From the NCBI GenBank assembly GCA_963719755.1, contig CAVRDA010000006.1, positions 17,309 through 81,308 on the forward strand: a stretch of 64,000 nt of DNA. The letters run 5' to 3'. Made by a program: the position numbers and the translations under genes. This stretch comes from Vicinamibacteria bacterium. GTDB lineage: Bacteria; Acidobacteriota; Vicinamibacteria; Vicinamibacterales; JAENWD01. The notes under the pieces are model-generated. The model saw nothing but the letters and a program-made list of their open reading frames with translations, did no database searches and had not been told where the DNA came from. Positions 11,603-13,814 of the stretch are shown here, in pieces; position 1 is the stretch's first letter; each line of letters begins with the position of its first letter.

Positions 11603-12622
11603 ATGCTTCTTGGCGCGCTTGGATTCACCACCGATCTGGCAATCGATCTCGGAACCGCCAACACCTGCGTATTCGTGCCCGGCCGGGGCATCGTCCTCAA
11701 CGAGCCGTCCGTCGTCGCCTACAACACCGCGCAGAACCGGATCGAAGCGGTCGGCACCAAGGCCCGGGAGATGATCGGACGCACGCCCCGCGACCTGGTG
11801 GCGATCCGGCCGCTCAGGGACGGGGTGATCGCCGACTTCGAAGCCGCCGAGCGCATGCTCACCGACTTCATCCGGCGCGCCAATCGGCGGAACGGCTGGG
11901 TGCGCCCGCGCGTCGTCGTCGGCGTGCCGGCCGAGATCACGCCGGTCGAGCGCCGCGCGGTCCGGGAAAGCACGCTGCGCGCAAAGGCGAGCGAGGTCTA
12001 CCTGGTCGACGAGCCGGTGGCCGCGGCCATCGGCGCCGGCCTGCCGATCACCGAGCCGACGGGCAACATGATCGTCGACATCGGCGGCGGCACGACCGAC
12101 ATCGCCGTCGTCTCGCTGGCGGGGATGGTCTACCGCAAGTCGGTGCGCGTGGCCGGCGACGAGATGGACGAAGCGATCGCCGACCACATGAAGAAGGTGC
12201 ACGGCCTGCTGATCGGGCCGCGGACGGCGGAGATGATCAAGATCGGGATCGGGTCGGCCGCGCCGCTCGACGAGCCGTTGGCCATGGAAGTCCGGGGCCG
12301 GCACATCACGGCCGGCCTGCCCAAGAGCATCCCGGTCTCGGACACCGAGATCCGCGAGGCGCTGCGTCCGACGATCGATGTCATCGTCCGCGCGGTGCGC
12401 GAGGGGCTGGAGCGCGTGCCGCCGGAGCTGTCGGCCGACATCTACGACCGCGGCGTCGTCATCACCGGCGGCGGGGCGCTCCTCAGAAACCTGGACAAGC
12501 GCCTCCGCGAAGACACCGACCTGCCCGTGCAGATCGCCGAAGACCCGCTGACCTCCGTCGTCCTTGGCGCCGGGCGCATGCTGTCGAACATCGGGCTGCT
12601 CAAGAAGCTGGCGATGTCGTAG
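11603..12622 (+). CDS. mreB: Rod shape-determining protein MreB-like actin, paralog 1
   Basis: IDLGTAN, RPLRDGVIADF, EPVAAAIGAGL, DIGGGTT, TGGGALL. GGAG RBS. Confidence 0.93.
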   Translation: MLLGALGFTTDLAIDLGTANTCVFVPGRGIVLNEPSVVAYNTAQNRIEAVGTKAREMIGRTPRDLVAIRPLRDGVIADFEAAERMLTDFIRRANRRNGWVRPRVVVGVPAEITPVERRAVRESTLRAKASEVYLVDEPVAAAIGAGLPITEPTGNMIVDIGGGTTDIAVVSLAGMVYRKSVRVAGDEMDEAIADHMKKVHGLLIGPRTAEMIKIGIGSAAPLDEPLAMEVRGRHITAGLPKSIPVSDTEIREALRPTIDVIVRAVREGLERVPPELSADIYDRGVVITGGGALLRNLDKRLREDTDLPVQIAEDPLTSVVLGAGRMLSNIGLLKKLAMS

Positions 12623-12637
12623 GGGGGAGGGCAGTTT

Positions 12638-12683
12638 CCCCCACAACCCTACAACCCCACCACCCTACATCCTTACAACCCAT
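12638..12683. repeat. Degenerate octamer array (CCCYACAA) x~5
   Basis: ccccacaa ccctacaa ccccacca ccctacat ccttacaa. Confidence 0.8.
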
Positions 12684-12791
12684 CTCTGGCCCCTACTCCC
12701 CCGCCCCTTTCCGCCCGATACTCCGCGAAACGGCCCGGATTTTCGCGCCCCGGTGAGGCGCCCGGGCCACAACGCTTCGCGGAGTGTCTAG

Positions 12792-13814
12792 ATGAGATTC
12801 GGCAGGGTCCTTCCATTCTCGACCGATCTGGCCATTGACCTCGGGACGGCGAACACCTGCGTCTACGCCCCCGGCCGCGGCATCGTCCTGAACGAGCCGT
12901 CGGTCGTGGCGTTCAACAAGGTGCACGGCCGCATCGAGGCGGTCGGCACCGAAGCCAAGGAGATGGTGGGACGCACGCCGCAGCACCTCGTGGCGATTCG
13001 CCCGCTCAGGGACGGCGTGATCGCCGACTTCGAGGCGGCCGAACGGATGCTCACCGACTTCATCCGCAAGGCCCAGCCGCGCAGCTCGTGGGTGCGGCCG
13101 CGGGTGGTCGTCGGCGTGCCGGCCGAGATCACCGAAGTGGAACGCCGCGCGGTGCGCGAGAGCACCCTGCGCGCGAAGGCCAGCGAGGTCTTCCTGGTCG
13201 ACGAGCCGGTGGCTGCGGCCATCGGTGCCGGCCTGCCGATCACCGAGCCGACGGGGAACATGATCGTTGACATCGGCGGCGGCACCACCGACATCGCCGT
13301 CGTCTCGCTCGCCGGGATGGTCTACAGCAAGTCGGTGCGCATCGCCGGCAACGAGATGGACGAAGCCATCATCGAGCACATGAAGCGCCATCACGGACTG
13401 CTCGTCGGCGAGCGGACGGCAGAGCAGATCAAGATGGAGATCGGGTCGGCCTCGCCACTCGGCACGCCGATTACGATGGAAGTGCGCGGCCGGCACCTCG
13501 CCGACGGCGTGCCGCGCAGCATCCTCGTCACCGACCAGGAAATCCGGACGGCGCTGAAGTCGACCGTCGACATCCTCGTGATGGCCATCCGCGACGCGCT
13601 CGAGCGGATTCCGCCCGAGCTCTCGGCGGATATCTACGACCGCGGCATCGTCATCACCGGCGGCGGCTCGATGCTGCGCAATCTCGATCGCCGCATCGCC
13701 GACGACACGCAGCTGCCGGTGCAGATGGCGGAAGACCCGCTGACGTCGGTCGTCCTCGGCGCGGGCAAGATGCTGTCGGATTTGTCGCTGCTGAAGAAGC
13801 TCGCAGCGGCCTGA
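12792..13814 (+). CDS. mreB: Rod shape-determining protein MreB-like actin, paralog 2
   Basis: Same actin-fold motifs, colinear with paralog 1. GGAG RBS. Confidence 0.93.
   Translation: MRFGRVLPFSTDLAIDLGTANTCVYAPGRGIVLNEPSVVAFNKVHGRIEAVGTEAKEMVGRTPQHLVAIRPLRDGVIADFEAAERMLTDFIRKAQPRSSWVRPRVVVGVPAEITEVERRAVRESTLRAKASEVFLVDEPVAAAIGAGLPITEPTGNMIVDIGGGTTDIAVVSLAGMVYSKSVRIAGNEMDEAIIEHMKRHHGLLVGERTAEQIKMEIGSASPLGTPITMEVRGRHLADGVPRSILVTDQEIRTALKSTVDILVMAIRDALERIPPELSADIYDRGIVITGGGSMLRNLDRRIADDTQLPVQMAEDPLTSVVLGAGKMLSDLSLLKKLAAA

Follow-up and report, generated by a model that had tools for sequence, protein, structure and literature searches.

Two accessory MreB paralogs of Vicinamibacterales and their predicted connection to sigma54- and sigma28-controlled pilus genes

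Why would a bacterium that has a canonical mreBCD operon keep two further MreB actins, encoded side by side and apart from it? The question is raised by a stretch of 64,000 nucleotides (hereafter the window) from a member of the Vicinamibacterales (Acidobacteriota; contig CAVRDA010000006.1 of assembly GCA_963719755.1), which carries the colinear genes mreB-A and mreB-B. Both genes were found to belong to an accessory MreB lineage, and sigma54 and sigma28 motifs link the accessory mreB genes to pilus genes, a link that is new and that an earlier annotation of the same DNA (the original prediction) had overlooked. The explanation we put forward, which in our judgement has an even chance of being right, is that MreB-A and MreB-B would be accessory actins of a pilus programme running from sigma54 to sigma28, and that they would reshape the wall of cells in a piliated stage of attachment to a surface.

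An accessory MreB lineage apart from the mreBCD operon

The original prediction had described two intact mreB genes, about three-quarters identical, each with its own ribosome-binding site and separated by some 170 bp, and this description was borne out: the proteins share 77.6% identity (264/340 aligned residues), the genes share 78.9% identity at the nucleotide level, a GGAG precedes the ATG of both and the spacer measures 169 nt. The codons differ at 82 of the 264 identical residues and the pair is therefore not an assembly duplicate, as had been stated. Both proteins pass the cut-offs of the MreB models TIGR00904 (460.9 bits for A and 465.7 bits for B, cut-off 365.75) and NF010539 (481 and 488.7 bits, cut-off 293); they score below that of the MreBH model NF010540 (only 382 and 387 bits, cut-off 515) and below those of the MamK and BeeR models (76-94 bits, cut-offs 400/530).

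The genome of origin (G000, 80.65% complete) contains exactly three MreB-grade matches: A, B and a copy on contig C18 that is 68-69% identical to both. The C18 copy heads a canonical mreB-mreC-mreD-pbp2-rodA-rne operon, in which the labels mreD and rne rest on position and sequence, not on a family scan. RodZ is encoded on contig C16, and PBP2 and RodA pass their family cut-offs, indicating a walled host. As the original prediction had noted, no mreC, mreD, pbp2 or rodA flanks the pair, which lies between an APC-family permease and a beta-propeller protein; over the genus, mreC follows none of 22 A and B copies. The pair is thus accessory and stands apart from the canonical mreBCD operon of the same genome, as had been predicted. 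A gene encoding a GGDEF domain, read from a sequence motif (L009:6969-8222 on C18), ends 5 nt ahead of the canonical mreB start.

We found mreB-A in 14/14 genomes of the genus and mreB-B in 9/14 (counting the B gene of G006, which is split by a frameshift), which rules out a strain-specific event. The two genes are adjacent, with a spacer of 167-286 nt, in seven of the eight genomes measured, and G011 carries an insert of 4169 nt. Six genomes have the order A>B, the other three B>A. In a species tree built from nine markers, the A>B genomes, the A-only genomes, and the B>A genomes together with one A-only genome form separate clades, from which two losses of B and one order swap follow. The gene trees of mreB-A and mreB-B follow the species tree; both genes are vertically inherited.

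Outside the genus, an A/B-like protein was found in 2/188 genomes of the order, one copy each, and the one that was examined proved to be of a sister type. This sister type (L166, L175, L384) is single-copy, about 79% identical to both A and B, placed in another gene context and preceded by a conserved upstream motif of its own, with no sigma54 or sigma28 motif. A clade-specific pattern retrieved 28 metagenome contigs, six of which carry both genes, with both orders represented; most of the others are short or bear the single-copy sister type. Other accessory mreB clades occur in 5/5 genomes of two sister genera and in 5/42 genomes of other families, and extra mreB copies, none of them adjacent, in 11/121 Acidobacteriota genomes outside the order (a denominator that includes G082). 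In one genome of another family two accessory mreB genes lie 4.8 kb apart (L064, G051:C4:252202-257980) as the result of an independent duplication; genes for a bactofilin and a histidine kinase separate them, and neither copy has a sigma54 motif.

The MreB phylogeny was built from 76 of 119 selected rows with five outgroups from other phyla; near-duplicates, the probably chimeric contig L182 and those copies of other classes that diverge most were left out. The 32 accessory rows from the order all fall together in a single clade (100/99) within the MreB clade of the order (100/99), and inside the accessory clade A (100/98) is the sister group of B (100/90), with a support of 97/93; the accessory branches are all long, so that long-branch attraction is possible. 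The accessory clade is thus distinct, nested within the MreB of the order, and A and B belong to an order-wide accessory lineage of the Vicinamibacterales. A recent duplication of the genus's own canonical mreB was rejected (AU test, p = 0.001). Import from another phylum was discarded given the nesting of the accessory clade within Vicinamibacterales MreB, and import by phage given that the clade-specific pattern matched 0 viral contigs.

Pooled Nei-Gojobori dN/dS was 0.124 for A (16 pairs) and 0.116 for B (9 pairs) against 0.033 for canonical mreB (14 pairs), the pairs being non-independent and dS being compressed by the high GC content, and no single pair exceeded 0.27. The accessory values, 3-4x the canonical one, indicate purifying selection: both copies are functional, under a constraint weaker than that on the housekeeping gene. 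The original prediction had named two outcomes that would speak against it, namely that these were the only mreB genes of the genome and nested in the canonical clade, or that the tandem was strain-specific with one copy under relaxed selection; neither was found, and there is no decay of either copy. A signal of gene conversion between the two was weak and is not claimed: in 9/10 non-independent quartets more sites sorted by genome than in the homoplasy control, and these sites never outnumbered those sorting by gene.

Predicted promoters and a proposed connection to pilus genes

The sigma54 consensus consists of -24/-12 elements, GG-N10-GC, at fixed spacing. A motif of the form GGCA[CT]-N5-TTGC was found within 200 nt upstream of 22/33 accessory genes against 0/44 canonical ones (A 10/14, B 4/8, other accessory clades 8/11), and decoy spacers of 3, 4, 6 and 7 nt gave 0 matches in either set. 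As background, 24/4071 called genes of G000 have the motif. The four A copies without it comprise one at a contig end and those of the clade formed by G005, G012 and G013. G000 encodes RpoN (462.9 bits) and has 30 matches to the sigma54-activator domain. A GTAA..TTAC inverted repeat (GTAA-N16-TTAC in the window), a candidate enhancer, lies upstream of A in 8/14 genomes of the genus, some 90 or 155 nt upstream of the sigma54 motif. It sits in the B-A spacer of the three B>A genomes and therefore travels with A, and among the seven such repeats of G000 the one at mreB-A alone lies within 220 nt of a sigma54 motif. A scan of the mreB-A/B region for intrinsic terminators and sigma70 promoters found none.

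Upstream of mreB-B another type of motif was conserved. The sequence [CA]CGATA precedes B in 9/9 genomes, A in 0/14, the canonical mreB of the genus in 0/12 and other canonical copies in 6/32, with a background of 114/4071 called genes having it within 150 nt. For WhiG, a consensus T(A/C)AA-N16-GCCGATAA has been given (bioRxiv 10.64898/2026.01.14.699351), and five of the nine mreB-B genes (G002, G006, G007, G008, G011) approach it with TGAA or TGCA 16 nt before the 8-nt -10 element. With a matrix trained on pil genes, 6/8 of the mreB-B sigma28 sites ranked in the top 3%. Each mreB gene keeps its own promoter-motif type despite the order swaps. A CCGATA is also found just upstream of the ATG of an NlpC/P60 endopeptidase gene in all 7/7 genus loci that reach it, suggesting that this wall hydrolase would be co-regulated with mreB-B.

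A sigma factor that could read such sites is encoded on contig C15 of G000 and belongs to the FliA/WhiG family (TIGR02479, 202 bits, cut-off 189.6). No flagellin was found in G000, at 80.65% completeness, and over the order matches to TIGR02479 occur in 58/61 genomes and flagellin in 18/61, so this WhiG-like sigma factor is largely non-flagellar. A flagellar role of A and B was rejected, since G000 has no detected flagellin and only 2/13 other genomes of the genus have one. The WhiG-like sigma gene itself has a sigma54 motif in 9/9 loci, against 1/20 for a second, mostly flagellum-linked sigma28 type. It is near-universal in the order (L263, L269; G000:C15:145975-147034) and has in G000 a divergent NtrC-type activator gene and a GGDEF gene nearby. 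It looks like a master switch of an undescribed programme.

The same two motif types were found at pilus genes. G000 has 29 intergenic sigma54 motifs, and the 17 with annotated downstream genes include those of pilM, the major pilin (pilA, with pilB and pilT adjoining), two tad/flp clusters and the WhiG-like sigma gene. In the pilM-pilQ cluster (L307, G000:C16:443223-445644) a sigma54 motif precedes pilM, a sigma28-type motif lies about 210 nt before pilM and a further, internal sigma28-type promoter motif stands ahead of pilO; within the genus, the sigma54 motif of pilM recurs in 13/14 genomes and the sigma28-type motif in 11/14. At pilO, CCGATA, mostly with TAAA at N15-16, was found in 8/9 B-bearing genomes (the ninth having a near match) and in 0/5 A-only genomes. 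WhiG drives type IV pili in Rubrobacter (PMC8325347), and deletion of mreB abolishes twitching in Pseudomonas aeruginosa (bioRxiv 10.64898/2026.08.02.742333). One metatranscriptome held only 5% of the words, in short diverged contigs from mixed organisms, and was not used for expression.

Table 1. Positions in the window of the accessory mreB genes, their putative control elements and neighbouring genes
Feature	Position	Strand	Basis or remark
mreB-A, accessory MreB, 339 aa	11603-12622	+	profile search; genus-wide presence
mreB-B, second accessory MreB, 340 aa	12792-13814	+	profile search
A-B spacer, 169 nt, C-rich short repeats	12623-12791
Sigma54-type -24/-12 motif GGCAC-N5-TTGC of mreB-A (predicted)	11530-11543	+	about 60 nt before A; upstream comparison
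GTAA-N16-TTAC inverted repeat, candidate enhancer (upstream activating sequence) of mreB-A	11442-11465	+	putative
Sigma28/WhiG-type -10 motif CCCGATAC of mreB-B (predicted)	12714-12721	+	-35 poor in G000
NlpC/P60 peptidoglycan endopeptidase	17032-17592 (ATG 17047)	+	3.2 kb downstream of B; candidate co-regulated wall hydrolase
APC-family amino acid permease	9920-11407	-	divergent, upstream of A; synteny marker; in 11/14 genus loci
SGL/NHL beta-propeller protein	13840-14841	-	convergent, downstream of B; synteny marker; in 13/14 genus loci

The permease and propeller genes, like neighbouring HNH and DUF3179 genes, were dropped as candidate partners of the pair: their position reflects plain synteny, and other accessory clades do not have them. 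Short-unit tandem repeats occupy both mreB gene ends (window 12623-12700 and 13815-13860) and may have eroded the -35 element of mreB-B in G000. Two more wall-related genes lie in the window, encoding an MltB-family lytic transglycosylase (8827-9888; it lies 1.7 kb upstream of A, and only 3/14 genus loci have it close to the pair) and an L,D-transpeptidase with a peptidoglycan-binding domain (36596-37810). Single frameshifts split ordinary genes such as those for glycogen synthase, the DUF3179 protein and lepA (window 4758-6200, 15053-16256 and 19336-21136) and the C18 mreC, which points to assembly indel errors and not to pseudogenes.

Conserved and altered residues of MreB-A and MreB-B

An AlphaFold2 model of A, made from an alignment of 87 rows, reached a pLDDT of 92.5 and replaced an earlier model from a shallow alignment (pLDDT 61.9). 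In Foldseek comparisons it matched the Caulobacter double-filament MreB structure 4CZE with a TM score of 0.91-0.96 and an rmsd of 1.3 A, and MamK and BeeR with TM scores of 0.72-0.81. Numbered by alignment to E. coli K-12 mreB, residues D16, G18, T19, N21, V121, E122, R124, E143, D165, G168, T170, T171, D195, D285 and E319 show no variation among 14 A and 8 B sequences. Among them are the equivalents of E319 and D285, which in E. coli contact RodZ and FtsZ, respectively (PMC5624674), and which every A and B copy has. With the catalytic and lateral-contact residues of MreB as mapped in PMC4051119, the catalytic residues (Caulobacter E140 and T167) and the phosphate loops are kept in 14/14 A and 8/8 B, and the catalytic glutamate in 113/113 A-type homologs. 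The lateral-contact residue V118 (Caulobacter) is present in all, and the longitudinal S283 position holds A or S, like in canonical copies. The ATPase and filament-contact residues of A and B are thus intact, and polymerisation itself is predicted. As a separate observation, 11/25 mreC-linked canonical MreBs of other Acidobacteriota classes have Gln where the alignment places the catalytic Glu (E. coli 143); the residue may truly have changed in these lineages, or the alignment may be shifted.

At the membrane, all A and B sequences have W-[VLIM] in the loop where Caulobacter has F102-V103. The N-termini differ, that of A being plainly hydrophobic and that of B amphipathic: over the first nine residues in G000 the hydrophobic moment is 0.54 for B, 0.50 for the canonical copy and 0.06 for A, in a part of the model with low confidence.

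Departures from canonical MreB concern positions such as 262 and 269, which PMC5624674 assigns to the flat face between protofilaments; flat-face positions were picked from the literature, not through statistical clustering on coordinates. Position 262 holds E or D in 44/44 canonical and 11/11 other accessory sequences and in 0/14 A, 0/8 B and 0/113 A-type homologs, and the D or E found at position 269 in 44/44 canonical sequences is absent from every A and B. Further, A and B carry Tyr or Phe at position 287, unlike canonical MreB. Position 196 is variable only in A, D192 is fixed in A where B and canonical MreB have N, and S184R and D192 are shared by every A (14/14) and every A-type homolog (113/113). 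In E. coli, replacing a single residue of a predicted MreB interface by alanine often changes little (PMC12991368).

The motifs that had been listed as non-canonical fared unevenly. DIYDRG is indeed accessory-specific (0/44 canonical), whereas NTCV and GRH occur in 44/44 canonical MreBs of the order and are lineage signatures, and the DEP of VDEPV is also found in Caulobacter MreB, with the catalytic glutamate kept. The contrast of GPRTAE in A with GERTAE in B is present in the window, but P occurs in only 3/14 A copies. NTCV, GRH and GPRTAE were accordingly rejected as marks of a new function.

Possible roles and relation to known MreB systems

In the mechanism that we propose, an enhancer-binding protein at GTAA-N16-TTAC would activate sigma54 at mreB-A, in one tier with pilA, pilM and the gene of the non-flagellar WhiG-like sigma28 factor. 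This factor would then transcribe mreB-B, pilO and the genes behind it, and the NlpC/P60 endopeptidase gene. MreB-A and MreB-B would form membrane-bound antiparallel double filaments that use the RodZ, PBP2 and RodA encoded elsewhere, as Bacillus MreBH does; the use of RodZ is suggested by its presence in the genome and by the kept E319 equivalent. The recharged flat face might give these filaments different lateral contacts or curvature, and the altered filaments might change where the wall opens and where the pili sit. A wider version is in our view unlikely: an undescribed cascade of the Vicinamibacterales would switch on both type IV and Tad pili, and in this genus it would also deploy MreB-A early and MreB-B late. 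Held separate from the housekeeping MreB by their recharged lateral faces and pairing with each other, the two would build and polarise a cell type of its own, either motile or adhesive.

Several observations weigh against the pilus programme. The 17 annotated genes behind sigma54 motifs also include those of a ClpA-type ATPase, a TonB-dependent receptor, a helicase and others, so a shared sigma54 motif is no proof of a pilus role. None of the pilus genes was found to have the candidate enhancer, and genome-wide raw counts of neither the sigma54 nor the sigma28 motif exceeded those of decoy spacers. A looser pattern also scores 5/25 canonical genes of other classes. At the A site the base preceding GG is G, where T is usual. 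With a sigma54 matrix trained on pilM and sigma-gene sites, by a pattern that excluded this G, 0/14 A, 0/8 B and 6/11 other accessory sites ranked in the top 1% of the genes of G000; the A site is still a weaker consensus match. G005, G012 and G013 keep A and the TTGC element and have lost the GGCAC (-24) element. For mreB-B, the -35 element is weaker in G003, G004 and G010 and poor in G000. The joint loss of B and of the pilO site amounts to only two independent events in the tree. Finally, pilO was found in 30/31 relatives searched while most of the order has no accessory mreB, which shows that pili do not need it.

Some of these points would equally suit a pair that serves as a conditional back-up or tuning set for the ordinary elongasome, resembling MreBH and Mbl and called upon under nutrient or envelope stress, with the pilus link being a shared sigma factor only; we consider this possible, though doubtful. 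LytE is an NlpC/P60 enzyme, and the NlpC/P60 gene downstream of mreB-B parallels it. In Bacillus, sigma-I co-induces MreBH and the LytE autolysin, and MreBH serves the RodA elongasome (PMC7478892). All elongasome-type residues are retained in A and B, non-pilus genes also lie behind sigma54 motifs, and in the three genomes that keep A without the -24 element A is most conserved (dN/dS 0.02-0.04). A back-up role does not account for the sigma28-type motif that mreB-B has in common with pilO and pilM or for the missing pilO site in the five B-less genomes, and the altered flat-face residues, present in all copies, would not be needed by a plain back-up. The distribution of the sigma factor and of flagellin over the order, together with the role of WhiG as the sporulation sigma factor of Streptomyces (PMC8325347), would also fit a developmental switch towards resting, dispersing or differently shaped cells, the wall of which the accessory MreBs would build. 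The conserved targets that were found are pilus genes and a hydrolase, and a search of the literature on the order, as far as it was accessible, turned up no resting form; we hold such a switch to be quite unlikely, and it overlaps with the pilus programme if the piliated cell is the dispersal form.

The original prediction had inferred an accessory, possibly co-polymerising system of two actins. In this vein, A and B might form a wall-independent filament producing force or serving as a scaffold, like the paired MreBs of Spiroplasma, in which several MreBs power swimming (PMC10279915). The tandem is kept in nine genomes and the paralogs differ in fixed flat-face residues (D192 and, with a putative placement, S184R) and in their N-termini, as such an idea would have it. 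An obligate two-actin co-polymer is nevertheless unsupported so far, because A stands alone in 5/14 genomes, B was lost twice, and the order swaps and separate promoter types do not enforce equal co-expression. The host moreover encodes PBP2, RodA and RodZ, and an MglB/roadblock protein as in the Myxococcus polarity system was not found in G000 (80.65% complete), making a wall-independent co-polymer very unlikely in our view. That the two genes are redundant duplicates drifting towards loss, with no distinct role, is largely refuted and to us extremely improbable: the raised dN/dS, the losses of B and the patchiness of the accessory lineage in the order might suggest it, but the highest pairwise dN/dS, the presence of A throughout the genus, the promoter motifs conserved across families and the catalytic residues invariant in all A-type homologs speak against it.

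Accessory MreBs are a known kind (PMC12372405, PMC12991368), and the pair resembles several described systems in part. Like Bacillus MreBH and Mbl, A and B are stand-alone paralogs outside mreBCD in a walled cell, and the predicted control by an alternative sigma factor shared with a hydrolase recalls MreBH. Unlike MreBH, they are of independent origin, being nested in Vicinamibacterales MreB and below the NF010540 cut-off, and they reside in a diderm host as two genes in two tiers under predicted sigma54/sigma28 control shared with pilus genes. With canonical MreB (Caulobacter 4CZE, E. coli) they share the fold (modelled for A), the small residue at S283 and the catalytic, lateral, membrane-loop, E319 and D285 features; they differ in the missing mreCD linkage, the lost acidic residues at 262 and 269, the faster evolution and the promoter motifs of their own. 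The sigma factor resembles the WhiG of Rubrobacter and Actinoplanes, a non-flagellar member of the sigma28 family with promoters of the type TAAA/CTCA-N16-17-GCCGATAA in pilus clusters (PMC8325347, bioRxiv 10.64898/2026.01.14.699351), with the differences that here the sigma gene bears a sigma54 motif and that the predicted targets include an MreB; the word mreB does not occur in the main text of the latter paper. The MreB1-5 proteins of Spiroplasma likewise arose as several paralogs in one genome through duplication (PMC10279915), but Spiroplasma is wall-less and swims by MreB, whereas this host encodes a complete elongasome and some genomes have A but no B. No literature on MreB paralogs of Acidobacteriota, on a WhiG-like sigma factor there or on a sigma54-controlled mreB was found in a search of listings and abstracts of mainly open-access papers.

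Most of the extra MreB paralogs to which a role has been assigned are those of Bacillus and the wall-less Spiroplasma; the present ones form a conserved, selected lineage in diderm bacteria that are known chiefly through metagenomes. If only the back-up role holds, the pair would be a modest parallel to MreBH. If the pilus programme is true, nature would offer here an example of an MreB set aside for life on surfaces, which would make the connection between MreB and type IV pili testable without A22 or the loss of the essential shape gene and would provide a first regulatory handle on a life-cycle switch in the Vicinamibacterales.

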